A stretch of 64,000 nucleotides of DNA from an uncultured virus (IMG/VR IMGVR_UViG_3300038312_000396) (lineage: Duplodnaviria > Heunggongvirae > Uroviricota > Caudoviricetes). The notes under the pieces were generated by a model. The model searched no databases and was not told the DNA's origin. It saw only the letters and a list, made by a program, of their open reading frames with translations. Made by a program: the position numbers and the translations under genes. This document shows positions 2,784 to 51,105 of this stretch, piece by piece. The number at the start of each line of letters is the position of its first letter. Position 1 is the stretch's first letter. Where the stretch lies: the IMG/VR virus record IMGVR_UViG_3300038312_000396; one strand, given 5' to 3'.

Positions 2784-2803
2784 TCTAAGTCCCCCTATAA
2801 TTT

Positions 2804-2841: not shown

Positions 2842-2855
2842 ATATTTAATACGTA

Positions 2856-22480: not shown

Positions 22481-22481
22481 G

Positions 22482-23657
22482 TTATGTGTAAAGTATAGCC
22501 TTTCCGTAATTTCTCAAATTAACACTTGCCTGAAAATCCCTATCAATGTTATTACTACACTTCGAGCATACATATGTACGCTCTGATAAACTTAAATTAT
22601 GCTTTATGTTTCCACACACACAACATTTCTTACTTGAGGGGAATCTTCTATTAGCAATTATAAGTTCTGAACCATAGTATAAACACTTATACTCAATCTG
22701 TCGTCTGAATTCTCTGAACATACTATCCTGTATACTTTTAGCTAAGTGTTTGTTTTTCATCATGCCAGATACCGCTAAATCCTCTAATACTACAAAACTT
22801 GGATTTCGTTTCATAATATCAAAGGTTGTCTGATGTAAATAATTTGTTCTTAAATTTTTTAGCTTTCTATTAATTATTAGTAATCTCCTTTCTTCCTTTT
22901 TTATATTATTAGTCTTATGGTACTTTTCCCCGTCTTTATTCATTTCGTACTTTCTTGACACTTTCCTTTGAATCCTTGTTTTCTTCTTTTCAAGTTTCTT
23001 TACCTTTGCAGACTTATTTATATTATTATATGTAACCCCATCTGAACAAACAGCTAACTTCTTAATTCCCAAGTCTATTCCAATACCCTCGTTATTGTTT
23101 ATCTTGTCTTCAGGTAAAGCTTCACAACTAACTGTTATGTACCAGTTAATTCCGTCAAATTTAACACGTGGATTATAGTACTTCACTCCACTTCTAGGTA
23201 TTCTATCTTTTTCTGCTAGCTTTATGTAGTTTAAATGTCGATCTTTCTGTTTTTTTGATAACGAAATTTTTTCCATAATAACATGAGTGTCTGTAAAACT
23301 AATTACACAAGGATCGATATAAAATGAGGGTGTAGACTTTTTCTTTGATTTAAACCGAGGAAATTTATGTGTCTGTCTAAAGAAATTTTGATATGCTCTG
23401 TCTGCATCTTTTATAGCCTGTTTTAACACATTATTAGAAATTGTGTTTAACCAAAAATATTCTTCTTCACATTTTAACTGTGTAAACTCTTTACGTAAAT
23501 CATACACACTAATAGATTGTCCAAAATCTTCATACAAATACTTACGTCTGCCGATTGCCCAATTGTACGCAAACCTCGATGCTCCCGCAAACTGACGAAA
23601 TCTCGATTCTTGCACTTTATTCGGATGTAAAATAACTTTGAAAGTTGTCATTAACAT
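22482..23657 (-). CDS. tnpB: RNA-guided endonuclease TnpB
   Basis: RuvC residues intact: IGIDLG, VVLEDL, IDRDFQA; zinc finger CCVC...CSKC; N-terminal HTH. Confidence 0.95.
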   Translation of the reverse strand: MLMTTFKVILHPNKVQESRFRQFAGASRFAYNWAIGRRKYLYEDFGQSISVYDLRKEFTQLKCEEEYFWLNTISNNVLKQAIKDADRAYQNFFRQTHKFPRFKSKKKSTPSFYIDPCVISFTDTHVIMEKISLSKKQKDRHLNYIKLAEKDRIPRSGVKYYNPRVKFDGINWYITVSCEALPEDKINNNEGIGIDLGIKKLAVCSDGVTYNNINKSAKVKKLEKKKTRIQRKVSRKYEMNKDGEKYHKTNNIKKEERRLLIINRKLKNLRTNYLHQTTFDIMKRNPSFVVLEDLAVSGMMKNKHLAKSIQDSMFREFRRQIEYKCLYYGSELIIANRRFPSSKKCCVCGNIKHNLSLSERTYVCSKCSNNIDRDFQASVNLRNYGKAILYT

Positions 23658-24268
23658 TGTGATTCACCTTCCGATATCAAATCTTCAACAAGTTTACGTG
23701 TTTTATGTGCCCTTTTACCTTGTAGTTTACAGCTAAACACAGTGACTATTTGAATCAAATCTTCCACTAATTCCTGCTGTTCAGTTTTTTCTGTACTATC
23801 TAAAACTTCAATTTCACAACCATTTATGTTAGCAAAATATTCAACAAGTTCAAAACCGAAACGTAATAACCTATCTTTATAAAAAACACAAACTTTTGAA
23901 ACTTCCCGATTGTTTATTCTCCGTATAAGATCACGCAATCCTTTTTTTGTGTAATTAATACCACTACCTATATCTTGTATAATTTCATACCTTTCACCTT
24001 TACTTGTCAGATACTTATTCATATATTCAACTTGTCGTTCAAGATCATCTTTTTGGTTATTGCTCGATACTCTGCAATAACCTATTACTTTTTTTATCTC
24101 TTGCTCCTTTATTCCAAGAACAAGATTTAATTGTTTTTGCGAATAATACCTGTAACCCCCTGCACCTAAATGATCTGGTTTTAATTTGCCACTCTTATCC
24201 CAATTCCTTAATGTTTGTGAAGTTCTTCCTATAAGTTTTGAAAATTCATGTATACTGTAATATTTCAT
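23651..24268 (-). CDS. tnpA: IS607 TnpA serine recombinase
   Basis: MerR-like HTH (TLRNWD), catalytic YCRVSS, DIGSG, DRLLRFG; start reassigned to ATG 24268. Confidence 0.95.
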   Translation of the reverse strand: MKYYSIHEFSKLIGRTSQTLRNWDKSGKLKPDHLGAGGYRYYSQKQLNLVLGIKEQEIKKVIGYCRVSSNNQKDDLERQVEYMNKYLTSKGERYEIIQDIGSGINYTKKGLRDLIRRINNREVSKVCVFYKDRLLRFGFELVEYFANINGCEIEVLDSTEKTEQQELVEDLIQIVTVFSCKLQGKRAHKTRKLVEDLISEGESQC

Positions 24269-24424
24269 AAAATTACCATCCTTTATAACTATAATAACAT
24301 AATTCACATATTAAATCAAGTCCTATTTTATAACTTTTTATAACTTTTTCATAGACTGATCAAAGCCCTAATTCCTTAATTATACTATTATTTTACATTT
24401 GATCCTACTGTTAAATAGCCCCTC

Positions 24425-28932: not shown

Positions 28933-29988
28933 TTAATCTTTTATTGTGAAGCCGTAAGATGCCAAACATTCAATTATTTCATCTGCTGTCTTAACTCCCA
29001 AATTACGTAACCTCAACAACCCACTTCGTGTCATTCCTATCACGTCAGAAACATACCTTTTATTTGCGTTTCTTAATACCTTACACGCTTTGTTACTCAA
29101 TCCTATATCTGTAAGCTTCGTTAAAGCTGTATCCACCGTACTTACATCTATACTGTCCCTTTTCTTTTCATTCTGTGAACACATCTTGACGTATTCGTTT
29201 GTTAAGTATGAATTTTTATCTTTTAGTTGATTGATTTCTCTTTTTTGGTTTAAACTCAACTCTACAGCCTCTCTCAATTTATTTTTAAGTATATCTATTC
29301 TGTCTACAGCAGTAAAATACTCCCTATGCTGTATTCTTATTGCACGTATCATTTCTTTCTCTCTTTGTTGTACAGTCGATTTTGTTACTTTTAAATATTT
29401 CCCACATGCCTCAAATGTCAACTTGCGAATATACCTAAGTTCTATAATTTCTTTGTACTTCTCTTTAAGCCCCTCAACTACAGCTAAAAACTCCTTTAAG
29501 TTAAACTGCAATACTTCTGAGGCAATACTAGCAACACGTAATCTAAGAATTAAATTGTAGGGATACCTATATAAATAGTTATATTTATTCACCTCTTTTG
29601 GTTCAGTTCGAATTAACTTATCTATCACATCATATACACTACCTAACTGCTTATGTAATGTTCTCGATTGACCCATTCCCTCTCCAGCATTAACAGATGT
29701 CCATAAAAATAAATCCAAAGCGAATACCAGTTCAAAAAGTTTTGAAATAAAGATTTCTTCTACTTTTTTTGTAGTCCGGTTGTTCCAGTCAAAATATATA
29801 TGTATTCCTTTCGTATCAACATGCCCTCTTACAATACTATTGTACCATAAATAAGTACGGGTTTCCATCCATCCCCGTGCTTTAAACCAATCTAAGTGAT
29901 TCCTAATCTCTTTATTTTCGCAAATATGAAGCACATTGTCTACTATTGCAAACAATGTTATTTGATTCTCCTTTAAACTGTCTGGCAC
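28933..29988 (-). CDS. Sigma-70 region 4 HTH / coiled-coil / alpha-CTD-like protein
   Basis: LKEKYKEIIELRY...LTFEACGKYLKVTKSTVQQREKEMIRAIR; C-terminal IGLSNKACKVLRNA...LLRLRNLGVKTADEI; YPYNLI. Confidence 0.8.
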   Translation of the reverse strand: MPDSLKENQITLFAIVDNVLHICENKEIRNHLDWFKARGWMETRTYLWYNSIVRGHVDTKGIHIYFDWNNRTTKKVEEIFISKLFELVFALDLFLWTSVNAGEGMGQSRTLHKQLGSVYDVIDKLIRTEPKEVNKYNYLYRYPYNLILRLRVASIASEVLQFNLKEFLAVVEGLKEKYKEIIELRYIRKLTFEACGKYLKVTKSTVQQREKEMIRAIRIQHREYFTAVDRIDILKNKLREAVELSLNQKREINQLKDKNSYLTNEYVKMCSQNEKKRDSIDVSTVDTALTKLTDIGLSNKACKVLRNANKRYVSDVIGMTRSGLLRLRNLGVKTADEIIECLASYGFTIKD

Positions 29989-37522: not shown

Positions 37523-38290
37523 CTACTCTTCATCTTCTTTATCGTCAAGTTCAAGTATTTCAAGCATATTGTCAATAGCTTCTTTAACCGATAGTCTAAA
37601 ACTATTGAATACGTTTACCTTGTCTGCAAATTCTGTTTCAAGCTTTTCTTCCTGTGTTTGATACGTAATTACTTTGTTAGAATGTGCTAACTCCAATTCT
37701 TTTATTTTTTGTTCGTATTCTGCTTGACACTCAACCGCTCTATTAGAGTACTTTAACTCTAATTCCTGCATTGCCTGATCGTGCTTTTCTCGGTTATTCG
37801 CAATAATAGCATCTTGTTCCGCTTTAAATCGATCAGACAAAGCTTTTTCGTCATTAGTCAACTTTTCTATTTCTTCTCTGATACCCTTTTCCTCTTGCTT
37901 TGCCTGATTTAGTAATTCTTGTCCGTCTAATGCCGCCTGTTCTAATAGCTCTTTTGACTTCTTTTCTGCATCAGTAATAAGGTCTTGAGCCACAAGCTTT
38001 GCATTATTTTCAAGTGCGTTAGCTTGCTCCTTTGCCTGATTAATTATACCCTCTGTTGTTTCATTAGCTTTTAATAAAGTGTCAGTAATCAAAATTTTTC
38101 TGTTTAAGAATTCATCCAGCTTTGATTTCAAATCACACACGTTGTTATTTGCAAGTTCCAAACTCTCTTTCAAAGTCTTTATTTCCGAATCTTTTTCTTC
38201 GACGTTATGTTCAAACTCTTGTATGAGTCTTAAAATGAAGTCATCAACGTCTTTTTTCTTGTAGCTCTGTAGCATATTCTCCGGTTTCAC
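37523..38290 (-). CDS. DivIVA-like coiled-coil protein
   Basis: N-terminal SYKKKDVDDFI (cf. GY...EVD.FL), then ITDTLLKA...II.QA...A coiled coil. Confidence 0.65.
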   Translation of the reverse strand: MKPENMLQSYKKKDVDDFILRLIQEFEHNVEEKDSEIKTLKESLELANNNVCDLKSKLDEFLNRKILITDTLLKANETTEGIINQAKEQANALENNAKLVAQDLITDAEKKSKELLEQAALDGQELLNQAKQEEKGIREEIEKLTNDEKALSDRFKAEQDAIIANNREKHDQAMQELELKYSNRAVECQAEYEQKIKELELAHSNKVITYQTQEEKLETEFADKVNVFNSFRLSVKEAIDNMLEILELDDKEDEE

Positions 38291-38313
38291 GCTAAAATCC
38301 CCCTTTTAACAAG

Positions 38314-38748
38314 CTATTGGTTATTCCTCGATTCTACTGTCTCGGCAACACTAGATTCAGTTGTATCGTCTGTCACCGCAGTCTCAATAGTTTCCTGTTC
38401 GCTTATTTCTTTCTGAATTTCTTTTTCTAATTGCTGTATCAGATACTTTAAGGCTTCATCTTTCGCCTTTCCTGCAAGGTCTTTAGATTTAACCTGTATC
38501 TCCTGATATATTCCCTGTATTTCGGGGCTGTTCTCTATATACTCTTTATAAGTGCTGTACCGGTTACGAATTATATTTTCCCACTCAATATCTGATTGAC
38601 CCCCTACTATACTTATAAGTCCTATTACTATTGCACCAAATAAAACAACTACAACCGCAAATTTAATTACTTTTTTCGCTACTGTCAATAAAATAACAAT
38701 CGCTACTACTGCCACAACCGCAAGTAATATGTAGTTAATATTGTCCAT
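38314..38748 (-). CDS. Membrane protein
   Basis: Two N-terminal TM helices. Confidence 0.65.
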   Translation of the reverse strand: MDNINYILLAVVAVVAIVILLTVAKKVIKFAVVVVLFGAIVIGLISIVGGQSDIEWENIIRNRYSTYKEYIENSPEIQGIYQEIQVKSKDLAGKAKDEALKYLIQQLEKEIQKEISEQETIETAVTDDTTESSVAETVESRNNQ

Positions 38749-38803
38749 CTCCTGTTTGCCCTCTTTAACCTTTCTTTTTAATTATACTCGTCTATACTTA
38801 TCT

Positions 38804-39205
38804 TTACCTACTGTCTGCACAATTCATGTCTATTTTGATAACTTCAACCGTCTCAATCTGCAAAGCACTGTTAATTTGCTTAATACCCTCTGTGTATGTC
38901 TTAAACGGTATTACTTTTCCATTTATTAATGTACCATCAATGACATAGGTATGACTGTTAACTTTAGTGATCACAACAAACTTGCCTTTGACACGAATAT
39001 TACTGCACGGATCAGATCTAAATCGAATACTTTCACCTTGTTTGCTTCTACAGGTTACAAGTCCAACCCAACCTCTTCGTAAAGTGTCCTTAACTTTAAA
39101 GGCTACATTATAACTGTCAGTAACAGTACCGTTTTGATTCGACAGTGACTTTTCTACAGAATATATGATCTTATTCAACAAACTTATTTCCTCTGCCTGT
39201 GTCAT
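38804..39205 (-). CDS. Paralogue of 26197-26613 lacking catalytic Cys/His
   Basis: DSYNVA...RRGW...FVVITKVN...YVIDG...Y...I..IN. Confidence 0.6.
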   Translation of the reverse strand: MTQAEEISLLNKIIYSVEKSLSNQNGTVTDSYNVAFKVKDTLRRGWVGLVTCRSKQGESIRFRSDPCSNIRVKGKFVVITKVNSHTYVIDGTLINGKVIPFKTYTEGIKQINSALQIETVEVIKIDMNCADSR

Positions 39206-39209
39206 TTAT

Positions 39210-39569
39210 TCACCCCGCATACTTCAAAGAGTTAACTACAAATTCCCCATTGCCTCTGTTTATTGCTTGAATATGCTTTTTGTATGCATCATAAGCCCAT
39301 ACTTTATAACGCTCCTTAGTTGCGTCAATGACATACAACTGATTATCTACTTTCGTGACTACTACTGTCTTTGAATCTTCGCTATTCTTTTGAGTTACGT
39401 CTGTTTTGAAATTAACCCGATCACCGCCAATATCAGTATAGACAAAGGTCTCTAACCAACCACGTTTAATCTCATCCTTAACTGTGTTGGCGATTTCTAC
39501 ACTATCTGCATACTTATTTATCTTTACACTGTTTACTTTACTTATTAATTCACTAAGTTTGTTGCCCAT
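39210..39569 (-). CDS. Paralogue of 26197-26613 lacking catalytic Cys/His
   Basis: DSVEIA...KRGW...TVVVTKVD...YVIDA...Y...I..IN. Confidence 0.6.
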   Translation of the reverse strand: MGNKLSELISKVNSVKINKYADSVEIANTVKDEIKRGWLETFVYTDIGGDRVNFKTDVTQKNSEDSKTVVVTKVDNQLYVIDATKERYKVWAYDAYKKHIQAINRGNGEFVVNSLKYAG

Positions 39570-39634
39570 GTGATACCCCTTTCCCTATTTGCTCTCACAA
39601 TTTTGAAAATTTATCTCTTTTACTCTTTATGTCC

Positions 39635-40636
39635 TTATTCGTCACCAGAGTTCAATTCTGATTGTGCTTCGTCAATAGTGTACTTTAGTATGTAAGCTTT
39701 AGCCCTCTCCGATGTGGATGCTGCTTTTATTAACATGTCTGGATTTTCTTCTAACGCTCTTTTCCACTCCTGAATGTAAGCAACGCTATTATCTACAACA
39801 CTAGGTTGGTACGCATATATCCCTGTTTCTGCACATAACATTGATGCTCCAAAGTTCGCCACAAGTTCTTCAAATGAAAAAGCACCATAACTCCTGTCAT
39901 TAGGTGTGACATTCCTTGTAACCCTACCTTTTTTACATGTAGAATGGATTAACTCATGAAATAAGGTAGAATAATAAGATTCAACACTGTTAAACTTATT
40001 TTCATCAGGCATATTAATTATGTCTAACTTGTCATTGTAATACGGATCTGTACTTCCGTGCTGTACTGTAATATCTTCCATTTCGCAATAATTCCCTGCA
40101 ACGTCTTGAGGTAAGCCTAGAGGTGAAAACTCTATGTCCCCCGATTCGAGCCTTGTTTTCACAGGATTCCCATCCTTGTCAATCATATACTTTACATTAA
40201 ATACAGTGTAATACCTTACTGTTCCATATGTTCTAAGAAGTTGACCGTCAGGTTTTCTTTTTAACAACCTGTGATCTATAGCATATTTAATTAAGTCATT
40301 CCTACTTTGATTGCCTATTAATGATTTTACATAGTCAAGAATCTTTTCCATACCCTCTTGACTTACAGGGTAATCCTTATCAATTTTACGTATTATAATT
40401 TCAGATGGGGTGTTTTTTGGGATATTAAACTTAAATCCCAACGCCTGTTTAAATGTTAAATACTCTCCCTCAGGTATTAAAAACCTATTAATCCCTGTGT
40501 ACTCTTTACATGACTTCCAGTTAATTGCCACTGTGCTACTCCAAGGTCTTAACCAAGGTAGTCTTTGTTCTTCAAGTGCTCGTGTCATTATCCTGTCAAC
40601 AATAATTTCACCGACCGTTTTCTTTCCATCTCCCAT
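39635..40636 (-). CDS. ardC: ArdC-like antirestriction protein (ssDNA-binding + zincin metallopeptidase)
   Basis: PWLRPW, YTGIN, YLTFKQA, YYTVFNV, YYSTLFHELIHST, FEELVA. Confidence 0.85.
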   Translation of the reverse strand: MGDGKKTVGEIIVDRIMTRALEEQRLPWLRPWSSTVAINWKSCKEYTGINRFLIPEGEYLTFKQALGFKFNIPKNTPSEIIIRKIDKDYPVSQEGMEKILDYVKSLIGNQSRNDLIKYAIDHRLLKRKPDGQLLRTYGTVRYYTVFNVKYMIDKDGNPVKTRLESGDIEFSPLGLPQDVAGNYCEMEDITVQHGSTDPYYNDKLDIINMPDENKFNSVESYYSTLFHELIHSTCKKGRVTRNVTPNDRSYGAFSFEELVANFGASMLCAETGIYAYQPSVVDNSVAYIQEWKRALEENPDMLIKAASTSERAKAYILKYTIDEAQSELNSGDE

Positions 40637-40731
40637 GTTAAATGCCCCCTTGTTCTTCGCCTGTTTAAATTTTAAAACCTACTATATATAAAAAATTGTC
40701 TTTAGTTGTGTTGCAGTAGAAAAATAAACAT

Positions 40732-40827
40732 AAAAAAATAGATGTCGGAGGGCAAATCCAACATCTACTTTACGGTTGTGAGAGTAAACTTAACTCATAA
40801 ACAGACAATCACAAGCATTTAACTCGC
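40732..40827 (-). ncRNA. Candidate small RNA (~95 nt)
   Basis: No ORF between a strong promoter (40834-40862) and terminator TAGATGTTGGA/TCCGACATCTA + T-tract. Confidence 0.6.
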
Positions 40828-40833
40828 ACCTTT

Positions 40834-40862
40834 ATTATAGCATATTTCCTGCAATTTGACAA
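40834..40862 (-). promoter_or_regulatory. Sigma-A promoter with extended -10
   Basis: TTGTCA-17 nt-TATAAT with TGn before -10. Confidence 0.75.
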
Positions 40863-41168
40863 GATGCAAGTCACTAAAATTTTTCTACTGTACAAAATAT
40901 TATTACTAGGTACTATAACTTGTCATACAACTGAAACATACGATATTGCCTGTGTGTCCACAACCCAAAGTATAAACTATCCCAAGTTTATTTTAAATCA
41001 CCCTTAAAAAACATATACGACCTTTTACTTGTTCTATGACCTTAAAGTCCTTTTTATTTGATTCGTTCCCTGAATTTTCTCTTGTTAACTGTTTCTGTAG
41101 CATACCTAATCCCTTTATAGTATACCTATAATACATCTTTTTAGACACGTAAATTGTCAGGATTTTTA

Positions 41169-41912
41169 CTAAAAAATGTCCATAGCGATGGTTTTTTGAC
41201 TATTTATTAATATGCTTTTAAAGAATTTTATCTGTATGTTGGATGCATCCCATATACCAAAATGCAATCCTTTATACAGAGTTATTCTTTTTAACGGGGT
41301 ACTCTTGTGTATTTTATAGATGTCATAATACCCCTCTTCTTTTGTGTTAGCCCAGTACATTAACCCATAAAACCCTTTTACCGACCTCAAATACTGACTA
41401 TCTACAGATAGTACATTCTTGTCAGAATCAGTACTATCACGTCTAAATAAAATAAAATCAGTAGTGTTAATATTTTTCAGAAACTCGTTATGCTCCAGAG
41501 TCTCATTGATTGTGTCAACAAATAAGTACCCTTGATTTCTTTCTATTTTTTCAATATCTAATTCTTCCTCACCATGTACTATCGTCAGTATGGTAGCGTT
41601 TTCAGATACAGTAACATTACCTTTTTCTGTAATAATTACAGAATCACCATGTCCGTAAGCTCTACCCCCTTTTTCAACAAAACAAATACTACTGTCTAAT
41701 GCAACAACGGTACTACCCTGTTTTGCAATTCCAATAGACTTGTCCATTAATACCCCTTTACTTTTATCTTTGAAAGTACAAATAGAGTTGCCTTTTACCT
41801 TTATGTTAGCTCCTTTTATAGCTTCAATATCTGAAACACCGCTAACTGTTAAGGTAGAACCAGCAACTCTTGCACAAAGGTCAAAAACTTCAGTCTCTCT
41901 AAAGGATGTCAC
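41169..41912 (-). CDS. Hypothetical protein with beta-helix-like repeats
   Basis: Approx. 8-residue periodic S/T-V-x-A pattern in the N-terminal half. Confidence 0.6.
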   Translation of the reverse strand: MTSFRETEVFDLCARVAGSTLTVSGVSDIEAIKGANIKVKGNSICTFKDKSKGVLMDKSIGIAKQGSTVVALDSSICFVEKGGRAYGHGDSVIITEKGNVTVSENATILTIVHGEEELDIEKIERNQGYLFVDTINETLEHNEFLKNINTTDFILFRRDSTDSDKNVLSVDSQYLRSVKGFYGLMYWANTKEEGYYDIYKIHKSTPLKRITLYKGLHFGIWDASNIQIKFFKSILINSQKTIAMDIF

Positions 41913-41950
41913 AAGTATTTTCTTTTCCCTTTTAATGTTAAGCCCCTCTT

Positions 41951-43201
41951 TCAGTCGAATTTAGTTATTTTCATAGGTAATAATACTTCCCCGTTAACGT
42001 AATAAGTAATTTCTTGTCTTAATTCTTCAATAAGGCTTTCGATCATAGTCTCGCTAAACGCTTGCTTTTTATACAAGAATTTAATAGAGTCAAATGCAGT
42101 ATAGTAAATCATTATATCTTTGTCAAATAACCCCGTTAATGAATTCCAACCATACCCCTTTTTCTTTAACGCATTACTTAAATCTTCTATCGCCAATGTA
42201 AGTATATCGGACGTACTCCCTTGTATTTTCCATGAAACTTTTACTTTCTTGTTGTTAACATTCCTCGAATTGTCTACATCCCTTATTTCTGTACCGAACA
42301 AAGTATAAACTGACTTCAAGGTTTCATCTGATAATTCGTCCCACAGTGCTTTAACTGTATTATTTTCTGCAAATAAGTCGTATATCTTTTCACCAACCAC
42401 CCCTTTGCTTATTTGCTTTATCTTTGCTTTTGAAGCTCCATACAATGAAGCGTTCCAACAAGCTTTTATTACGTCTCTCTGTTCTGTAGTTATTGTTTGC
42501 ATACCTAATACAGTTTTTGCAACACTACTATAAAAGTCCGAATCATTGCAGAAGATGCCAAACTCTTTGATGTCAAACACATAAGCCGATATTCGAGGCT
42601 CTATCTGATTGTAGTCTAGTTCATATATCCCGTATCCCTCAGGTGTGAATAAATTCTTATAGGTGTTTATATCAAAACCACTTACACAAGGGTTATTTGT
42701 GTAGGCTCTGTTCGTTATAGCATAAGTGTGTTCTGGATGAACGATACTGTTACTATCTGCAAGCTCTATTAGTTTACTTAAAGATGAAACTGTCCTATTT
42801 GTGGACGAATACTGCACAATAACCTCTGCTACAGGATCATCCGCAAATCTATTAAATTCCTCTATAAGTTCAGATTTAAAGGAGTAGTCCATCTGTCTCT
42901 TTCTTGTATTATACACGTAAAAGTATTTTTTCAACAATTCTTCTGAATAGTTTGAAATAAAATAACCTTTAACTTGTAACGGTGAGTTTGGATTGAGTCC
43001 TGCATACCCGTAATTAGAAAGTAATTGCCTCATTTCATCCAACATTCTACTGTTTATCCTGATATGCTCTTTAGCCACTTCCTGATTTACATAAATCCCT
43101 CGATGTGTTACATAGTCATAATACTCCTTTGCTATTTCAAAATCAGGTACATGGAAATAATCATTTTTACTGTTAAATTCCTCTGTGTAAATTGTCTGCA
43201 T
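41951..43201 (-). CDS. Family A DNA polymerase, polymerase domain only
   Basis: Motif A LDYNQIEPRI, motif B RDVIKACWNASLYG, IQGSTSDI, motif C variant AFDS. Confidence 0.85.
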   Translation of the reverse strand: MQTIYTEEFNSKNDYFHVPDFEIAKEYYDYVTHRGIYVNQEVAKEHIRINSRMLDEMRQLLSNYGYAGLNPNSPLQVKGYFISNYSEELLKKYFYVYNTRKRQMDYSFKSELIEEFNRFADDPVAEVIVQYSSTNRTVSSLSKLIELADSNSIVHPEHTYAITNRAYTNNPCVSGFDINTYKNLFTPEGYGIYELDYNQIEPRISAYVFDIKEFGIFCNDSDFYSSVAKTVLGMQTITTEQRDVIKACWNASLYGASKAKIKQISKGVVGEKIYDLFAENNTVKALWDELSDETLKSVYTLFGTEIRDVDNSRNVNNKKVKVSWKIQGSTSDILTLAIEDLSNALKKKGYGWNSLTGLFDKDIMIYYTAFDSIKFLYKKQAFSETMIESLIEELRQEITYYVNGEVLLPMKITKFD

Positions 43202-43586
43202 GTAATAGCCCCCATTTCTTTAAGTAGTTTCTTATACTTTTCATTGCCCCAGGTAAGTAAATAAATACATTGTAATCATACCAATCACGATTCAAATCAA
43301 AGTGCATTAATCCCTGTCTAAACTTTTCAACTAACATGTTGTAATCCTGTTTGCTCACGTTATAAATACGCTTTGCATAAACAATACGGTCATCACTCTC
43401 TAAACAAATTTCTAAAGTAGCCCTATTTGTTAGTAATAGCCCTAACCCTATAACTTGTTTCCGAAACAAGAATATGCTTTCTATAGGTAGCTCTTCAATC
43501 TTGTTTAGTTCCCCATACTCAAATGTATAAACGTGTTTATTTGTATAAATATACCCGTTATGGTCATTATTTGATAGTACCCACAT
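43173..43586 (-). CDS. Hypothetical protein coupled to the polymerase gene
   Basis: 137 aa, overlaps polymerase start. Confidence 0.6.
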   Translation of the reverse strand: MWVLSNNDHNGYIYTNKHVYTFEYGELNKIEELPIESIFLFRKQVIGLGLLLTNRATLEICLESDDRIVYAKRIYNVSKQDYNMLVEKFRQGLMHFDLNRDWYDYNVFIYLPGAMKSIRNYLKKWGLLHADNLHRGI

Positions 43587-43653
43587 GTCTTTATCTTTTC
43601 CCCCAATTTCTTTTATTTTATATACACTTTGTTTTTAAATGTTTTTAAGTATA

Positions 43654-43683
43654 AAAAATACCGATTGTCAAATCGGTATTTTA
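43654..43683 (-). terminator. Rho-independent terminator
   Basis: AAAATACCGATT...AATCGGTATTTT. Confidence 0.75.
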
Positions 43684-43708
43684 AAGTAATTTATTTATTT
43701 GTAATATT

Positions 43709-44443
43709 TTATAACCACGCTACAGCCTGTAACTCATCTTCCCTTTCACTCTCAACTGAAAGCTTATTGTACTTATAGAATGGCTCTCCCTCTTCCTCGT
43801 CAATAAATCCCATACCAAGTACAATGTCGTTGTCTATGAAAAATTGAACAATCTCTCCCATTCTTTTCTGTCCCAATGCTAAACTTTCGTGTATAGCAAC
43901 TATCTTCTTAGAGTATTCCGCACGTTTAGAATAGTTTATTAGATGTAAATAAATGTAATCTCCGTCAACACATAAAAGTCTAACTAAGAAGTTATATTTC
44001 TTTGGTTTAATACCCTTTGATATCGCTAATGCACAAAGGTTTTGCCTGAAAACACACTGTTTAGGTATTACGTATTTAAACACATTTCCTGTTTGTGACT
44101 TTACAACAGATTCATAACCGTAATCCGGTTCACTAGGCTTATACTTGTAAGGTAATTTTATGTTTATTTTTGAGTATATCCTTACATTGTCTCTGCCTAC
44201 ATGGGAAATTATAGCTTTTGAACCGTTTAATCTTTTGAACAGTGGTTCGGTAACCCCCTCTATCTTTGCTAAGTCAGGGATATTGTTTACGTTTTTTAGA
44301 GATTGAAAAAAAGAGTTAACGTCAATTGACATACCTGTAGCTACTGCAAATTGCTTTAACATTCTTCTGATGCTGTCTATGTTAGCATTTTCTGAATTTT
44401 CTTTCAATATTCCCCTACTTATCAAATTTTCTACAGTCACCAT
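43709..44443 (-). CDS. Hypothetical protein
   Basis: 244 aa with GAGGTG RBS. Confidence 0.7.
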   Translation of the reverse strand: MVTVENLISRGILKENSENANIDSIRRMLKQFAVATGMSIDVNSFFQSLKNVNNIPDLAKIEGVTEPLFKRLNGSKAIISHVGRDNVRIYSKINIKLPYKYKPSEPDYGYESVVKSQTGNVFKYVIPKQCVFRQNLCALAISKGIKPKKYNFLVRLLCVDGDYIYLHLINYSKRAEYSKKIVAIHESLALGQKRMGEIVQFFIDNDIVLGMGFIDEEEGEPFYKYNKLSVESEREDELQAVAWL

Positions 44444-44596
44444 TTCATTTCACCTCACTTAACATATATAAAACTATGTCTTTAATTTACTTAGTTAAGT
44501 GCAAAAATAGGGTAATAATGTGAAATAGTTTATATTGGCACTACTAATTCAAATAAAAGTTAGTTTAAATCAACAAAGTCTATTCCCGTTATTAAA

Positions 44597-44667
44597 TAAA
44601 AAAAATTGCCATACGGAAACCCGTACAGCAATTTAAGAGGAAAGAATACAAAACGAAAACTAACCTT
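44597..44667 (-). ncRNA. Candidate anti-RBS small RNA A (~70 nt)
   Basis: TATAAT at 44673-44678, U-rich body with UUUCCUCUU, 14-bp terminator stem + U8. Confidence 0.55.
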
Positions 44668-44711
44668 ATATTATTATAGTCGCTAATGTGATAATACGTT
44701 AAACTTACTTA

Positions 44712-44756
44712 CAAAAATTCCGTACAAGCAATGCCATCAGCGTGTGCGGAATTTTT
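44712..44756. terminator. Hairpin related to the flanking sRNA terminators
   Basis: AAAAATTCCGTACA...TGTGCGGAATTTTT; shares CCGYACA with neighbouring stems. Confidence 0.6.
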
Positions 44757-44781
44757 AATTATCTATAGCACACACTATGTT

Positions 44782-44858
44782 AAAAAAGAACCGCACAGTT
44801 CCCTGTGCGGTGTTCATGGAGAAACAAATATGAAACTACTATGTACCTAATAATCTCG
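44782..44858 (-). ncRNA. Candidate anti-RBS small RNA B (~75 nt)
   Basis: TATAAT at 44864-44869, body UUUCAUAUUUGUUUCUCC, terminator ACCGCACAG/CTGTGCGGT + U-tract. Confidence 0.55.
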
Positions 44859-44990
44859 GATTAATTATACTAATTTTTAGTCACTATTTTTAAATTGCCT
44901 GTAAAAATTTGTTGATTGCCCGTTATGCTAACTCCATAGAGGTAAAACATAACACTTATTATTGTATTCGATACGTACGCCTATCACTCT

Positions 44991-45866
44991 CTAATACAAC
45001 TCACTGTCATTAAACATTCTTATAAAGTTTTCAACAATTTCTCTATCATACAAAATATCTTTTTTCTGGTCAATGTAGTTTAAAGCATCTTCTTTAGATG
45101 TCTCTACCCTGTAAATTCTTTTAGTAGTGATTGCATCAAATGTATCTACTACTGCCAAAAGTCTACCCGCAAACGATATTGAACATTCCCCTTTACCTGA
45201 CGGATACCCTGTTTGGTTTATCCTTTCATGATGGTCTAGTATTCCAAGTAGGTGTTCTGACTTTTTTAGAGTAACCATTTCATAATACCCTATCGTGGAA
45301 TGCTCCTTTATTTTTTCAAACTCACCATCTGTTACCTTGCCTTTTTTGCCTAGTATGTCATGAGGTATCTCTACCTTGCCAATATCGTGCAATAAAGCTA
45401 CGTCAACTACTTCTTTATATCTGTCCAACATACCTGTATACTGCAAGTACATATATGTTAATATAGCTACGCTTATCGAATGTGATAGTACTCCTACTGT
45501 TTTTGCTACTTGATCGTATTCTCTCATTCTGGTTACATTATTGTACAATACTCTGTCTGTCCTTATTCTATCGCAAATGTCCTTTATAGCTACATCTAGC
45601 CCCTTAAAATCCTTTACACTTTCATTTACATAGCTCTTTACTTTGCTTTCACACAATAAGTTCCCGCTTTTTTCTTCTGTGTGCAATTCAACAAATATAG
45701 TATCTATAATTCCACTGTAATTACTTAATAGGTTAGAAATAGCTTCCTTAGTTAACTTTTCTCCCTTTCGTAATAACAGTATTCCTGTACGCTTATCCTT
45801 TATAGGTTTCATAACTCTCATGCCTTGTCTCATATCTGCCAGTCCAATGTACACCCCGTTAGTCAC
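44991..45866 (-). CDS. HD-GYP phosphodiesterase
   Basis: HSISVA, LLHDIGK, HHERINQTGYP, VDTFDAIT. Confidence 0.9.
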   Translation of the reverse strand: MTNGVYIGLADMRQGMRVMKPIKDKRTGILLLRKGEKLTKEAISNLLSNYSGIIDTIFVELHTEEKSGNLLCESKVKSYVNESVKDFKGLDVAIKDICDRIRTDRVLYNNVTRMREYDQVAKTVGVLSHSISVAILTYMYLQYTGMLDRYKEVVDVALLHDIGKVEIPHDILGKKGKVTDGEFEKIKEHSTIGYYEMVTLKKSEHLLGILDHHERINQTGYPSGKGECSISFAGRLLAVVDTFDAITTKRIYRVETSKEDALNYIDQKKDILYDREIVENFIRMFNDSELY

Positions 45867-45930
45867 ACTATCACTCCTGCCTCAATGTAATCTTTTGTTT
45901 CTCTGACTACATTTAATTTATTGTCTTAAT

Positions 45931-46851
45931 TTATTTCCATTGAGGTAGAGTGATCCTATATCTTGAACACTCAATCTGTAGCTTAGTCCAATCATACCTT
46001 GTCGGGTTACTTAACTCCAGTGCTTCAAATTCCATGACATAGTGCATTTTTTTAACATGTTCTACTAGTCCAGAGTCTGTACCATCATATTCAAACTGTT
46101 CAAGGCACTCAAGTATGTAATCAAAATTTTCAGGTCTAAATTTTTTAAAATCAGTTGCACAAGAAGCAAGTGTCCACATAAAATCATTATATTTTGCTTG
46201 TCCGTAACCTTTAAATGCAGGTAAGTTATCTGCTTTATCTCCACGTAACAGCTTAAAAAAGTATATTGAATTGTAAGGAATATAATACCCCTTTGTGGCT
46301 GAGAATTCATTTACATATTCTTCAAAGTTATCCCTATCAATTCGTATGTAATTTTTAAACTCACCTAATGTTTTCTTTCCTCTGAAATAAACGGTTATGT
46401 CAGCATTAACTAAACATAGTAGATCTGAATCATTAGTAAATATTTCAACCTTATACCCCTGACTTTCTTTCTCTCTTGCCAAATTATATATTATGTCATC
46501 TGCCTCTATACCTTTTTCACGATATACAGAAACCCCACCCAAACGTAAAATTTCTTCTGTCAGGTTTATTCCTGCATAAAAAGACGGCATTTGTGATTTT
46601 CTTCCCTCTTTGTATACTTGTCCAAAGGCTTCAACTAATTTTTCCGATCTCTCTATTGGCTTTCCCATGTCCATGACTACGGCTAATTCATTATCACCAT
46701 ATCCCGATAGGCGTACAATTTCTTTAATTGTATATGCAGGAATAGTAGTGTTTATAGCTACACCATTTACAGTGTGCCAAAGTTGAGGTGCGCCCCCATA
46801 AATGTACCTGTAAGGCATCCCGTTATAGTCAATTATTACTATTTTCTTCAT
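45931..46851 (-). CDS. Stand-alone 5'-3' exonuclease / flap endonuclease (PolA N-terminal type)
   Basis: IIDYN, YKEGR, EADDII, NDSDL, LRGDKADNLP..KGYG. Confidence 0.9.
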   Translation of the reverse strand: MKKIVIIDYNGMPYRYIYGGAPQLWHTVNGVAINTTIPAYTIKEIVRLSGYGDNELAVVMDMGKPIERSEKLVEAFGQVYKEGRKSQMPSFYAGINLTEEILRLGGVSVYREKGIEADDIIYNLAREKESQGYKVEIFTNDSDLLCLVNADITVYFRGKKTLGEFKNYIRIDRDNFEEYVNEFSATKGYYIPYNSIYFFKLLRGDKADNLPAFKGYGQAKYNDFMWTLASCATDFKKFRPENFDYILECLEQFEYDGTDSGLVEHVKKMHYVMEFEALELSNPTRYDWTKLQIECSRYRITLPQWK

Positions 46852-46865
46852 AAAAACTCTCCCCC

Positions 46866-47666
46866 TTATATCCCCATTGAATTTATAATGTCTGTCAAAC
46901 CATCAAAATTACTCTCTGTGATTGATTCTTTAACGCCCTCTGTCCCAAGACCAAAATCATCATCTACTTCGATTATGTCATTTTGTTTAATTAGTGTTTC
47001 AATTACAGAAGTCTTTTTAGGCGATTCATTCAGCTCTTTTGACACTTCGTAATTTTTAGTGTAACACCCAAATTCTTCTACGTCTTCAATTTTAGCCTCA
47101 CTAAGTGAAGTCTGCTGTATTTCAGATGCAACTTCATGTGATGCTACTGCTATACTCTCTTTTAGGGCTTGCATATCAGATTGTAAACTCAATTTTATAA
47201 GCTTAATCTGCCTCTCAATCTCCCCACTAATCAAAGCTTTAATCTTTTCTTCTATGTCATCAGCCTTTTCGCCTGTCTGGGTAACTTCTTCACTCTCTGT
47301 ATTCATGTTAGTAAGCTCATACAGAACACCGTAAATAAGGCTTTCATCTTTGGTGTTTATTGCATTTTTAGCCTCTTCCTGCATTAACCTTAACTTGTCT
47401 AAAACAGTATTAGCACTTCTCACAGTTTCTTCAAGCTTTAATTGTTCTGTTAATATCTCATTGTCTCCACTAAAAGATGTAAAATTTTGAAAATCGGTTA
47501 AGTTGTTAAAAACATAATTAAGTGAATCTTGAATCAACTTAGTCAAACACCTATCATTTTTTGCAGGATTTAATAGCCCATTAACTAACTTCTCACTCTC
47601 TTGTGTGAAATAAATTTGCACGTTTGATTTAAATATTACTTCGGGTACATATGAAAAATCATCCAC
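46866..47666 (-). CDS. Acidic coiled-coil protein, possible partition adaptor
   Basis: Downstream of the ParM-like locus; N-terminal beta-alpha-alpha-like pattern; function inferred only. Confidence 0.55.
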   Translation of the reverse strand: MDDFSYVPEVIFKSNVQIYFTQESEKLVNGLLNPAKNDRCLTKLIQDSLNYVFNNLTDFQNFTSFSGDNEILTEQLKLEETVRSANTVLDKLRLMQEEAKNAINTKDESLIYGVLYELTNMNTESEEVTQTGEKADDIEEKIKALISGEIERQIKLIKLSLQSDMQALKESIAVASHEVASEIQQTSLSEAKIEDVEEFGCYTKNYEVSKELNESPKKTSVIETLIKQNDIIEVDDDFGLGTEGVKESITESNFDGLTDIINSMGI

Positions 47667-48633
47667 AAGTAAACCCCCTCAACCCCACCGTGTCGGTTAC
47701 ACTTAATTTAGGTATTTGATTTAAAGCTTTTTTCATAGCATCTGTATCAGTTACGACCGTAATTTTCTTAAACCAGTCTACCGCCTTTAATTTTAAAAGT
47801 AACTCCCTTATAGTGGCTTTTTCATTGTTAACAAACACTATCGACTTGCCTTTTTTTAAAAATGCATTAAACAATGACGAAAAGTTGTTCTCTAAACTCA
47901 TTAGTACAACTATCTTTACATTGTCTAATACCCCTTTCTGTTTCCACTCTTGAAAAACTCTATTCCAATCGTAACATAAAATATCACACCAAGCACCAAC
48001 ATTTGTAGAGCCTTGCACGTATAATATATTATACTCAAGTCTAGTCGGTTCAACATCCCAAGCTTCTTTCAAATTATCTAAGTTCATTAAATTGTTTAGC
48101 TTATGCTTAAATATATCAGCAAAAGTAGGGTTAACATCCAGATCGATTACAATAAACTGTTCATCTTGTTCTTTTAAGTAGTCTGCAACTTTTTTTGAAA
48201 ACTCTAAACTACCTACGTTCAACCTAGCAAAAACATTCACGTACTCATTGACTGTCTCGTTGAAATACTTCTTTTCAACTTCAACAACTTCATCAACAGT
48301 ATCGTTATTTATGCTTGTTAAACTCTCAATACGAATAGGGCAATTATACTCACTTGCAGTGACAGTTAAGCCTAACACAAGCAATAATTCATCTCCTACA
48401 GTATTGTTATACTCTTCACTTATTATAATGTAATCGTCATCTAAATGGAAACTATCTTTAATTAAGGCGTACTCATTTTGAGTAATAATAAATGTTGTTT
48501 TATCGTGAGTGTATTCCGCATACTTCTCCAGTTTTTCATCCTTTAATACCAACATTTTCTTATTCAAAAATAAGTAGAAATACCCTTTTTTAAACCACTC
48601 TATGGTTAAACAATTGTTACCTACAACAAACAT
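47659..48633 (-). CDS. Protein with degenerate ParA/MinD-like domain
   Basis: NVFARLNVGSLEFSKKVA...FIVIDLD resembles P-loop/IDLD region but lacks GKT. Confidence 0.5.
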   Translation of the reverse strand: MFVVGNNCLTIEWFKKGYFYLFLNKKMLVLKDEKLEKYAEYTHDKTTFIITQNEYALIKDSFHLDDDYIIISEEYNNTVGDELLLVLGLTVTASEYNCPIRIESLTSINNDTVDEVVEVEKKYFNETVNEYVNVFARLNVGSLEFSKKVADYLKEQDEQFIVIDLDVNPTFADIFKHKLNNLMNLDNLKEAWDVEPTRLEYNILYVQGSTNVGAWCDILCYDWNRVFQEWKQKGVLDNVKIVVLMSLENNFSSLFNAFLKKGKSIVFVNNEKATIRELLLKLKAVDWFKKITVVTDTDAMKKALNQIPKLSVTDTVGLRGFTCG

Positions 48634-48657
48634 TTGTTAATCCCTCTCTGTAAATTA

Positions 48658-48694
48658 AGCGAGGTAGTCTACCTTGTTAAGTAGGCTACCTTGC
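48658..48694 (-). terminator. Terminator hairpin after ParM-like gene
   Basis: GCGAGGTAGTCTAC...GTAGGCTACCTTGC. Confidence 0.65.
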
Positions 48695-48707
48695 CTATTT
48701 TAATGAA

Positions 48708-49892
48708 TTATTTGTTAGTTGTTTTTTCTTTAGTACACAGCACTATCCAACACCCGTCTGCATCTGCAAATCTCGGTTTGCTATGTACTAGAACCTCTGT
48801 AAACGGAGCATTAACTTTAACGTAATCAGATAAGTATGATGTTGTACTTAGTATAATACGTTCTTCTTCCTCTTTAACGTATTTACCCTCTAGTGCCCCA
48901 CCACCTACACAAACTACTGCGGTCAATTCAGGTAAAGCCTGTGAAATTTGTGTCAAATATCTCTTAATTGTATCCATTAACTGCAAAGAGAATTTACGCT
49001 TGACTTCCTCTACAAGTTCAGGTACACTGACAATCTTTGATCCTATGTCTACTTTACCTGTCTTTATGGCTTGTTCTGCGGCATTAACGCTTATTCTGAA
49101 TCTGTAACGTTTGTACAACTCTGAAATTAATAATTCTCTTATCGTGTTTCCACCGATCGGGAATGTGTCTTTTGATCCTTTAACAAATTGCATGTTATTA
49201 AACAAGGCAACGTCAGTAGTTCCTGCACCGATGTTTACAACTAAGTATTTACCCTTGCTTAAAAACCCTGCAATGTCTTTGCGACTTCCATTCATCCCAA
49301 ATGTCATTGAAATTGAAGAAGCAAAACACTCACCAACAGGATAGTTTTTCATTATGTTCACCTTAACATCATTACCTAACATGTGGCAACCAATCAAACA
49401 TTCGTCAAGTGCATCCTTATCCAGCTCAACGTCAGCTAAAGGTAAGCATGTTCCTAATACTACTTCAAGTTCAGATGCCCCTGTTATTTTTGCTATTCTG
49501 TACAGCAATGAAAAAATAGAATAGTATGTGGTTGCTTGTTCGGCTTTTGAACCTGTTGTAGGTCTTACTACATCATGTTCGTGCTGAATTACTACGTCTG
49601 AACCCCCGTGTACCCTCACAGGTAACCCTAAAAATTCTTTCAAACTATCATTTTCTGAATCCAGAGTGAATACCACCGATTTAGGTATTCCGGCAGTATT
49701 GATGTCTATTACCTCTGTGTCCGGTATAATAATGTCTTCTTCTCCATACCCATCTTTTAAATTCTTTGAAATATAAAATTCGTTGTTCTGCTCCATTGGA
49801 TTATGCGCTGATACTGTCCCCCAGTTTGCCTTTGTCATGCTATTCCCCGTGTCTACTGCAAGTAAAATTCTTTTTCTAACGCCCATTCTCAC
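48708..49892 (-). CDS. ParM/StbA-like actin ATPase
   Basis: Phosphate-1 LAVDTGNSMTK, phosphate-2 VNIGAGTTD, adenosine VGGGA, PRFADADG. Confidence 0.85.
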   Translation of the reverse strand: MRMGVRKRILLAVDTGNSMTKANWGTVSAHNPMEQNNEFYISKNLKDGYGEEDIIIPDTEVIDINTAGIPKSVVFTLDSENDSLKEFLGLPVRVHGGSDVVIQHEHDVVRPTTGSKAEQATTYYSIFSLLYRIAKITGASELEVVLGTCLPLADVELDKDALDECLIGCHMLGNDVKVNIMKNYPVGECFASSISMTFGMNGSRKDIAGFLSKGKYLVVNIGAGTTDVALFNNMQFVKGSKDTFPIGGNTIRELLISELYKRYRFRISVNAAEQAIKTGKVDIGSKIVSVPELVEEVKRKFSLQLMDTIKRYLTQISQALPELTAVVCVGGGALEGKYVKEEEERIILSTTSYLSDYVKVNAPFTEVLVHSKPRFADADGCWIVLCTKEKTTNK

Positions 49893-50015
49893 AACACCCC
49901 TTTTAATTTAACTTATTATAATGCGTCAAAACTTATTTCCTTACTACCACTGTCTTTATTCTTCTACAGGTACTGAAAATACTTAGTTCAGTCCAGGAAT
50001 ATTCTTAACAAAGTG

Positions 50016-50050
50016 AAACAACTACCCTTTTATTTTAAAGGTAGTTGTTT
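50016..50050 (-). terminator. Rho-independent terminator
   Basis: AAACAACTACC...GGTAGTTGTTT. Confidence 0.7.
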
Positions 50051-50073
50051 ATTCTAATAAAATGTAGAAAACC

Positions 50074-51105
50074 CTATTTAACTTTGTCTAATATCTCCTT
50101 AACAGTATCTGAATACCCCTCTTCCAATTCCTTTAAAACTCTATCCTTTACCTTATTTGTCCTTGCTTTCACCCTATTTGCTTTTTGATTTTTCAGTCGC
50201 CTTGCAGTCTCTTTTTTAGCTATACGTCTCTGTTTACGAGTCATTTTCCTGTCGGCATTTTCTATTCTGCGTAATAGCGAATCTATATTTATGTATTTAT
50301 CGTTCAGGTATTCTTCATCTTCATCTTCATCTTCAAAGGTATTTTCTACAGTTGTTTTACCTCTGTAGTGTACTTGTTCGTTACCCTTTTTTATATTTAT
50401 TACAACTTTTTTCCCAAAGTCAATATCTCCAACTTCATTACCTTTTTCCATTTCTTCTGTGACATCCTCTACTGCGGCATGAGTAGTTATAAATTGATCG
50501 GGGTAATTGATTTCATTTTTATTTTCTTCCTCACCTTTATACTTGTCTAGTGTTATCCTAAAACTCCCAGCCTCTTTATCGTAAACAAAATCTGTCTTAA
50601 TAAAATTAAACTTCTGTATATACTCATTTAGAAGTTTAGTAGATTCTGTGTTATCACTCTCTGCCTTTAATTCAAAATCTAACCCCAAATCCACATTCTC
50701 ACAACTTATTAATATCTCTCTTAACTCAGAATCTAATTCTTCTATCGGATCATATTCAAAAGTGCTGAAATAGTTTTCTGTTGCGTACTTCTGTCTTATT
50801 TTACTGTCTTCGATATATTCCATAGCCGAGGTTGAAACCATTGTGACTATATCTGTATTATAGGTTGACACTATACTCTTTAGCTGTCTTTGAAAAAAAT
50901 CTTCTAACCCCTTAACCGCTACCCCTGCTGTCCCGAATAATACTATGTAAATAACAACCTTTTCCTCTACACCCTCTTGTGCCACAGACTTAATTTTGTT
51001 GTGCAATAACTTAAACTTATTTGTTACATAGTTAGGTACTACATAATTTTTGTTTAATAGCTGGCTTATCTTCATTTCAGTGTTTTCAACATACATCAAT
51101 ATCAT
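50074..51105 (-). CDS. Hypothetical protein, last gene of Tad operon
   Basis: 343 aa, acidic middle, basic C-terminus. Confidence 0.65.
   Translation of the reverse strand: MILMYVENTEMKISQLLNKNYVVPNYVTNKFKLLHNKIKSVAQEGVEEKVVIYIVLFGTAGVAVKGLEDFFQRQLKSIVSTYNTDIVTMVSTSAMEYIEDSKIRQKYATENYFSTFEYDPIEELDSELREILISCENVDLGLDFELKAESDNTESTKLLNEYIQKFNFIKTDFVYDKEAGSFRITLDKYKGEEENKNEINYPDQFITTHAAVEDVTEEMEKGNEVGDIDFGKKVVINIKKGNEQVHYRGKTTVENTFEDEDEDEEYLNDKYINIDSLLRRIENADRKMTRKQRRIAKKETARRLKNQKANRVKARTNKVKDRVLKELEEGYSDTVKEILDKVK

Follow-up and report, generated by a model that had tools for sequence, protein, structure and literature searches.

C- or CU-rich small RNAs (sRNAs) of the RsaE/RoxS type, which occur in Gram-positive bacteria, mask Shine-Dalgarno (SD) sequences, carry several conserved C-rich loop motifs and are conserved across genera. 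Among phage RNAs, sar covers the ribosome-binding site (RBS) of ant, and the OOP RNA of phage lambda is ~77 nt long. P22 sar and the c4 RNA of P1/P7 are known as RNAs that mask an RBS, and c4 pairs around the RBS of the ant mRNA (PMC12197685). Larger phages provide a second point of reference. In giant phage 201phi2-1, 11 sRNAs have been reported that are transcription units of <250 bp with termination soon after the start site, three of them intergenic and eight resulting from premature termination in a 5′ untranslated region (5′UTR) (PMC11512511); for phiKZ, PAK_P3 and others, 5′UTR- and 3′UTR-derived non-coding RNA candidates have been reported (PMC10914365). Here we describe an intergenic gap, 44444-44990, in a 64,000-nt stretch of DNA (the window) from an uncultured virus (IMG/VR record IMGVR_UViG_3300038312_000396). 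An original prediction had placed in this gap a duplicated array of modular sRNA genes which, through sequences antisense to RBSs, silences translation of chosen mRNAs. The explanation that we place first, with somewhat less than even confidence, is that the gap holds two independent, non-homologous predicted short units that would be transcribed by the host polymerase, are specific to this lineage and form no duplicated array.

The gap is 547 bp long and lies between two minus-strand genes, one for an HD-GYP-type protein (upstream) and one for a 244-aa protein. Along the minus strand, the stop codon of the HD gene is followed by 94 nt, promoter-like site B, terminator B, hairpin H2, promoter-like site A, terminator A and, after a further 153 nt, the start codon (ATG) of the 244-aa gene. 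Unit B has 52 nt and unit A 38 nt between the −10 hexamer and the terminator stem. Promoter-like site B (44864-44893, minus strand) consists of TTAAAA and TATAAT (44869-44864) separated by 18 nt, a 10/12 match, from which transcription would start near 44857. The body of candidate RNA B (44812-44858) comprises a 10-bp 5′ hairpin and then unpaired AUAUUUGUUUCUCCAUGAAC, with CUCC at 44821, and runs into terminator B (44783-44811), a 9-bp perfect stem (44811-44790, ACCGCACAG/CTGTGCGGT) with the loop GGAA and the tail TCTTTTTT (T6). H2 (44708-44762) resembles a bidirectional terminator on both strands, with a hairpin at 44713-44756, a 10-nt loop and A5 and T5 flanks. Promoter-like site A (44673-44702, minus strand), 10 nt past H2, pairs TTAACG with TATAAT (44678-44673) over an 18-nt spacer, also a 10/12 match, and would direct a start near 44666. 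The body of candidate RNA A (44635-44666) is essentially unstructured and U-rich, containing UUCUUUCCUCUU (CCTC at 44640), and terminator A (44597-44634) has a 14-bp stem (44634-44603) with two G-U pairs, the loop GUUU and a U8 tail. On the opposite strand, 44819-44836 reads GGAGAAACAAATATGAAA and leads into a six-codon open reading frame (ORF), MKLLCT, while 44635-44658 reads AAGAGGAAAGAATACAAAACGAAA. Thus, what the original prediction literally described, namely minus-strand units preceded by TATAAT, the hairpin positions and initiation-like readings of the plus strand, is all present.

Terminators A and B are predicted to be strong intrinsic terminators that would give the RNAs discrete 3′ ends. 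In a terminator scan, the region 44300-45100 contains two minus-strand terminators versus 0.3 ± 0.7 in shuffled sequences, and the hairpin free energy (dG) is −16.2 for each, with tails of T8 in A and T6 in B, the tail of A being given as TTTTT by the terminator scan. In terminator A, the two minus-strand G-U pairs become C-A mismatches on the plus strand, and stability drops from −19.1 (minus) to −13.2 kcal/mol (plus); H2 displays the reversed strand preference, with −19.0 kcal/mol on the plus and −15.7 kcal/mol on the minus strand. The location of these hairpins is also unusual with respect to genes. A relaxed scan for a hairpin followed by a T-run returned 30 candidates. Of the 14 distinct ones between genes, 8 are located 15-84 nt past a stop codon, whereas B, H2 and A sit 179, 237 and 357 nt, respectively, from the nearest upstream stop. 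The remaining three are a hairpin at 40769, which is 398 nt away from the last solid gene and 223 nt from an ORF of 51 codons that is itself doubtful, one at 20065 and one at the window edge. The hairpin at 20065 belongs to an orphan minus-strand terminator (20023-20065; dG −13.7, T7) that lies 215 nt past the nearest upstream stop and has no promoter-like match upstream.

Promoter-like sites and terminators are also linked by their co-occurrence. For 10 strong minus-strand terminators, we asked for a promoter match of at least 10/12 with the −10 hexamer ending 35-110 nt upstream. Such a match precedes all three orphan terminators (44811, 44634 and 40771) versus none of the seven gene-proximal ones, against a background of 0.041 for randomly chosen positions and 0.037 for intergenic ones away from both gaps. 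Unlike the promoter-like matches as such, their coupling to orphan terminators is non-random. The third orphan belongs to an unrelated promoter-to-terminator unit on the minus strand (40735-40862), in which TTGTCA and TG-n-TATAAT are separated by 17 nt (11/12) and a 15-bp terminator ends in a U7 tail. This unit ends 102 nt ahead of an ArdC-like gene, and its RNA would include a seven-codon ORF, MLVIVCL, behind AGGTG as well as the only CCTCC of the entire minus strand, most of which falls within the terminator stem.

Both gap units also contain a tract that is rare in this DNA. In all 64,000 nt of the minus strand, CCTC and CTCC together number just 53, and one of them is found in each body; the chance of finding either tetramer in a random segment is 0.022 for 32 nt and 0.036 for 47 nt. 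Between genes they are likewise concentrated here, with three in this 547-nt gap versus four in 4546 nt of other gaps. RNA B is predicted to fold into a 5′ hairpin, an unpaired linker containing the CUCC and the terminator, which is the classical layout of an sRNA, and RNA A into an unpaired U-rich tract with UUUCCUCUU (CCUC) followed by its terminator. An unpaired tract complementary to SD sequences is therefore predicted in both RNAs. Coding potential is absent: the units contain no ORF of at least 20 codons behind an SD sequence, and of the eight ORFs of at least 20 codons that overlap the gap, none follows an SD sequence and none resembles a membrane peptide. A type I toxin-antitoxin locus of the Fst/par-like kind was considered and is not supported, there being no small hydrophobic toxin ORF with an RBS in the gap. 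Taken together, the coupling, the position of the terminators and the CU tracts favour real short transcription units as the likeliest reading of these features. To this extent the original prediction has been borne out, as two self-contained promoter-to-terminator units of ~70-80 nt are predicted on the minus strand, with no RBS-preceded ORF inside, an unpaired CCUC/CUCC tract and non-random coupling.

If the units are real, a sigma-70/sigma-A-like promoter would fire into a strong intrinsic terminator, and a small non-coding RNA of ~70-80 nt would be released; we infer transcription, the RNA ends and any target from the DNA. Because no terminator precedes unit B (44893-44783), it would at the same time form part of the 3′UTR of the HD transcript, with the bidirectional H2 as a back-up. 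Indeed, the minus-strand stretch between the HD stop and promoter-like site B (44897-44990) is featureless and gene-free except for one further CCTC at 44942, and since terminator scans of it were negative, HD transcripts would be expected to continue to terminator B. Unit A (44702-44597) may additionally act as a promoter-proximal leader of the 244-aa and DNA polymerase genes whose terminator limits read-through, given that no promoter match follows it and that its promoter is the only recognisable one upstream of them. The 153-nt stretch from terminator A to the ATG of the 244-aa gene (44444-44596, minus strand) has no sigma-70-like promoter match, and this gene may thus need read-through of terminator A or a promoter of an unrecognised type. 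Any action in trans would most likely proceed by pairing of the unpaired CU-rich tract, CUCC in B and CCUC in A, with G-rich SD regions, and we regard RBS masking as the most natural trans function for such RNAs.

Two further elements of the original prediction fared less well. The idea of a duplicated array finds no support in comparisons of the units, which share a 7-nt core, CCGYACA, and are otherwise not detectably homologous. When unit A is aligned locally with unit B, the score is 10, versus 8.99 ± 1.48 for shuffled sequences (p = 0.30), the bodies alone give p = 0.085, and the two promoters differ outside their hexamers. Blastn of the gap against the window returned nothing but the gap, the palindromes within it and matches at chance level, the best of which has E = 0.031 over 40 nt at 72.5% identity; A did not match B. 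A search for an origin-like feature in the form of iterons or tandem repeats was negative. The plus-strand starts of the core are 44621 and 44720 (both CCGTACA) and 44791 (CCGCACA), and reverse-strand copies lie at 44743-44749 and 44804-44810. Five of the eight CCGYACA matches in the window thus fall inside 44621-44810, that is, within 190 bp, and the core is found in no other listed terminator of the window; the whole-window total is not unusual (8 versus 5.23 ± 2.01, with at least 8 in 12 of 100 shuffles). The description of three related hairpins holds in that all three share CCGYACA on the plus strand, but not in the arrangement of their arms. On the minus strand, the 5′ arm of B and of H2 carries CCGCACA and the 3′ arm TGTRCGG, whereas hairpin A has the complementary TGTACGG first (CTGTACGG, then CCGTATGG), and because of this swapped order hairpin A is no simple copy. 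End hairpins of an IS200/IS605-type or miniature element were also tried as a source of these structures and rejected: the gap has no similarity to the IS607-type region at 22.5-24.3 kb, and all three hairpins have A/T runs of the terminator type.

The second element is the silencing of chosen mRNAs. We paired bodies A and B with positions −30 to +20 of the 73 window genes and compared the result with 60 shuffled bodies. Body A reaches a mean of −13.56 versus −13.07 ± 0.61 (15/60 shuffles as low) and a best value of −21.3 (32/60), and body B a mean of −10.81 versus −9.88 ± 0.74 (7/60) and a best value of −17.9 (23/60). Pairing is therefore within the shuffled range, no initiation region among the 73 genes stands out as a preferred target, and the claim that the RNAs silence selected mRNAs is left without backing from the window. 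A textbook-like initiation region on the plus strand is to be expected, since the complement of any CU-rich tract resembles an SD sequence. Opposite unit B, the ATG 8 bases past the SD-like tract opens the six-codon ORF only; opposite unit A the plus strand has no start codon, and the proposal that ACG there pairs with AUG through a G-U wobble amounts to special pleading. Cis-antisense RBS masking of the sar type is likewise not supported, the opposite strand offering a six-codon ORF (B) or no start codon (A). As a new kind of system, an anti-RBS silencing array is unproven.

These pairing results weigh against functional units, and so do several other observations. Promoter-like matches occur at chance density in the AT-rich window (78 versus 78.0, 78 versus 78.8 and 80 versus 85.8 in shuffled sequences), and each of the two promoter-like sites combines a poor −35 box with an 18-nt spacer. 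For the coupling and motif tests, windows and thresholds were picked after seeing the data, so that their nominal probabilities are optimistic. Without their terminators, the bodies are not unusually structured (z = −1.60 for B, −1.54 for A and −0.91 for the third unit), and 13 of 200 shuffles fold as well as body B alone. Rfam 15 gave 11 matches at E ≤ 10, none of which reached the gathering threshold; those over the units are to NmsRb (20.4 versus a threshold of 52), rli38 (22.7 versus 49, the best within the gap), trpB (21 versus 59) and MIR6288 (18.1 versus 74).

Comparison with related DNA points in the same direction. A metagenome scan recovered two copies of the element on contigs of 155.7 and 156.2 kb (L001 and L002) from fermentation metagenomes and one true relative, L003, which is the only syntenic one. 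L003 has the same gene order, with 65% identity in the exonuclease, 36% in the HD protein and 47% in the homologue of the 244-aa protein, but its gap between the HD and 244-aa genes is only 99 bp long and contains one weak hairpin and neither unit. Gap-to-gap similarity is not significant (p = 0.16), and a 14-nt motif in common with the L003 gap (AATAATAAGTGTTA), tried as a conserved promoter, is not enriched in the window (33 versus 33.3 expected) and was discarded. The units are thus not conserved in the one syntenic relative, and the ~450 extra bases are lineage-specific. Strain variants are no more informative. The L001 variant is 98.5% identical to window positions 37754-50444, and its 190 mismatches are clustered (e.g. 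at 37.75-38.1 kb and 42.2-43.25 kb), which suggests a recombination mosaic; four DNA sequencing runs provided low-coverage, fragmentary, near-identical contigs. Within the gap the variants show no substitutions and a single 1-nt change in the length of the T-run of terminator A (44598), and a 1-nt T-run length change is also seen in the terminator at 40.7 kb. Because the adjoining 2.3 kb of coding DNA (44711-46990) is likewise free of substitutions, the invariance of the gap gives no signal of constraint. Element DNA is present in 17 sequencing runs, none of which is on record as RNA.

The same observations suit an alternative that we consider rather unlikely but take seriously, namely a passive operon boundary in which stacked terminators end the exonuclease/HD-GYP transcript, the TATAAT hexamers are internal or chance promoters for the 244-aa and polymerase genes, and the rest is spacer or indel debris. 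In its favour, the region is replaced in L003 by a short gap with a single weak hairpin, and a passive boundary is in keeping with the chance density of promoter-like matches, with bodies that are unstructured and have no target preference, and with the lack of similarity between the units. Moreover, with no earlier terminator after the HD stop, terminator B must serve the HD transcript anyway. What a passive boundary leaves unexplained is why these terminators stand 179-357 nt from a stop codon when 8 of 14 intergenic ones are within 84 nt, why a rare CCUC/CUCC tract occurs in each of the two bodies, and why a promoter match precedes three of three orphans versus none of seven other terminators, which is improbable by chance.

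A more ambitious version of the preferred explanation can be formulated, in which at least three unrelated predicted mini-RNAs of 70-100 nt, each transcribed independently and bearing a tract like the ribosomal anti-SD sequence, would be made early by the host polymerase and would form a fast-evolving, lineage-specific tool-kit that masks selected RBSs of host and element for translational takeover. We regard this extension as doubtful.

It is also improbable, in our view, that unit A, and likewise the 40.8-kb unit, is simply a promoter with a 5′ leader containing a conditional attenuator, which an element or host factor would overcome and of which the short RNA would be a by-product. The absence of a sigma-70-like match between terminator A and the ATG at 44443, and of a listed promoter match between the terminator at 40735 and the start at 40636, would fit such leader attenuation. 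Furthermore, 8 of the 11 sRNAs of 201phi2-1 are attributed to premature 5′UTR termination (PMC11512511), and read-through is probably common in the window, where several terminators are only 23-26 nt ahead of the next start codon. Against this, no alternative (antiterminator) pairing is predicted; body A is unstructured and the terminator, a very strong one with 14 bp and U8, forms in every fold. Matches to riboswitch or leader families are absent in Rfam, and unrecognised promoters may exist, as one of the element's proteins contains sigma-70 region 4. Unit B would remain unexplained by attenuation because H2 and a new promoter come after it.

Two other explanations survive less well. Emptied mobile cassettes of the PeSL type, that is, a terminator stem-loop plus an early promoter whose flanked genes were lost by recombination, would account for the succession of H2 and, 10 nt on, promoter A as a composite terminator/promoter (as PeSLs are defined in PMC2839356 and PMC4122927), for the fact that the stretch is an indel relative to L003 and for a CCGYACA core in its hairpins that is absent from other listed window terminators; we nevertheless hold this origin to be very unlikely, as known cassettes are conserved over ~100 bp and present in many copies per genome, and blastn found no repeat of the gap elsewhere in the window. 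A functional plus strand, on which a GGAG-N8-ATG micro-ORF (MKLLCT; 44831-44851) or a type-I-toxin-like peptide would be controlled by the minus-strand RNA as a cis-antisense regulator like P22 sar, is scarcely credible: the canonical, well-spaced SD sequence and ATG at 44819-44833 and an H2 that is stabler on the plus strand and followed by T5 stand against an ORF of just six codons, an in-frame 39-aa ORF that begins within the H2 loop without an SD sequence, and a unit A with no plus-strand start codon. With no plus-strand promoter match upstream within the gap, no plus-strand terminator after the ORF and all 73 called genes on the minus strand, MKLLCT is probably not a gene.

The surroundings of the gap are those of a replication region. 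G+C content is 34% in the window, the strand bias is constant, and the 73 called genes, all on the minus strand, have strong G-rich SD sequences. Recognised replication genes encode a family-A DNA polymerase, a 5′-3′ exonuclease and the HD-GYP-type HD protein, and further products are a clamp loader, a RecJ-like nuclease and a helicase. Also encoded are an ArdC-like protein, an actin-like protein, a protein with sigma-70 region 4 and an RNA-polymerase alpha C-terminal domain, and an IS607-type recombinase/TnpB pair; judging from these matches, the recognisable products of the window serve replication and takeover. The HD protein (44991-45866, minus strand; 291 aa, stop TAG at 44993-44991) matches Pfam HD_5 (5.4e-22) and HD (4.3e-11), and its HHE...GYP motif is seen in the alignment with the L003 homologue (2174-3043, 36% identity). 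As an HD-GYP-type phosphohydrolase kept within the replication module of L003, it might degrade cyclic-nucleotide signals. The 244-aa protein (43709-44443, minus strand; SD sequence GAGGTG) has three relatives at 45-47% identity and no Pfam or PHROG family, and its AlphaFold model (pLDDT 50.2) is too poor for a structure search.

The ~156-kb element is likely large and virulent-phage-like; we keep to likely because the 64-kb window has no structural phage genes. Blastn against 50,697 phage records yielded no match at the DNA level, whereas tblastn with the polymerase retrieved six records, every one below 28% identity, a faint protein-level likeness to deposited phages. No relatives emerged from IMG/VR when it was scanned with the 244-aa protein, with the HD protein or with alignment A1; the exonuclease alignment gave two loci there at 25% identity, and no relatives were found in GTDB genomes. 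The window also encodes a protein with ArdC-N and zincin-peptidase domains (39635-40636, minus strand) and an actin-like protein of the MreB/ParM type (48708-49892, minus strand), both of types frequent on plasmids, and given these genes and the absence of structural ones the window itself does not decide between a phage and a plasmid-like nature. The IS607-type pair (22059-24307, minus strand) consists of a serine recombinase with a MerR-type helix-turn-helix (23651-24307) and TnpB (OrfB_IS605, Cas12f1-like TNB; 22482-23657), and a 423-nt gene-free stretch directly downstream of tnpB could carry its guide (omega) RNA. The 351-aa protein at 28933-29988 (minus strand) unites sigma-70 region 4 and an RNA-polymerase alpha C-terminal domain in an unusual fusion, through which the host polymerase may be redirected.

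If the predicted RNAs of the gap are made, Gram-positive-type, host-promoter-driven sRNAs would join the short list of non-coding RNAs from large virulent phages, and the units would provide a simple test case for anti-RBS RNAs in phage takeover. For now they are a prediction from the sequence of an uncultured element, useful in practice as a list of targets for mapping transcripts. There is value in the negative results too: a duplicated modular array fails, and the initiation-like look of the plus strand is what any CU-rich tract would be expected to produce.

Contrary to the original statement that no named system has this layout, both the sRNA units of large phages (PMC11512511) and the RBS-masking RNAs sar and c4 (PMC12197685) are known, and the present units can be compared with each of them. 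With sar and c4 they have in common that they are (here predicted) small phage-encoded RNAs; unlike sar, whose antisense partner is a real gene encoded opposite it, and c4, which acts on the ant mRNA of its own operon, they have no complementary gene start that stands out in the window. Lambda OOP RNA resembles them as a very short phage promoter-to-terminator unit of similar size, but is antisense to cII, whereas no convergent gene exists here (for OOP, PMC12197685). The PeSLs of T4-type phages likewise join a sigma-70-like promoter to a terminator stem-loop within an indel-variable region (PMC2839356, PMC4122927); they form a conserved ~100-bp repeat family flanking small genes, whereas the 64-kb window has no repeat family and no genes lie between the units. 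The predicted RNAs share with the RsaE/RoxS type a predicted promoter of their own, an intrinsic terminator, and a pyrimidine tract that is left unpaired and is complementary to a G-rich RBS, and differ from it in having a single CCUC/CUCC per RNA, no conservation, no Rfam match and no target enrichment. A further parallel is with the sRNA units of the 201phi2-1 and phiKZ type, whose function is mostly unknown (PMC11512511, PMC10914365). Those units come from primary-transcript sequencing and from Gram-negative Pseudomonas hosts, whereas the present ones are predicted and no likeness to them in sequence or structure is to be expected, and one 201phi2-1 sRNA is conserved among genera while the present units are missing from L003. 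Nevertheless, as in those phages (PMC11512511, PMC10914365), these are short start-to-terminator units of <250 nt in intergenic, 5′UTR or 3′UTR positions of a large virulent-phage-like genome. Overall, the two units are plausible candidate sRNA genes, lineage-specific and of a kind known from large virulent phages.

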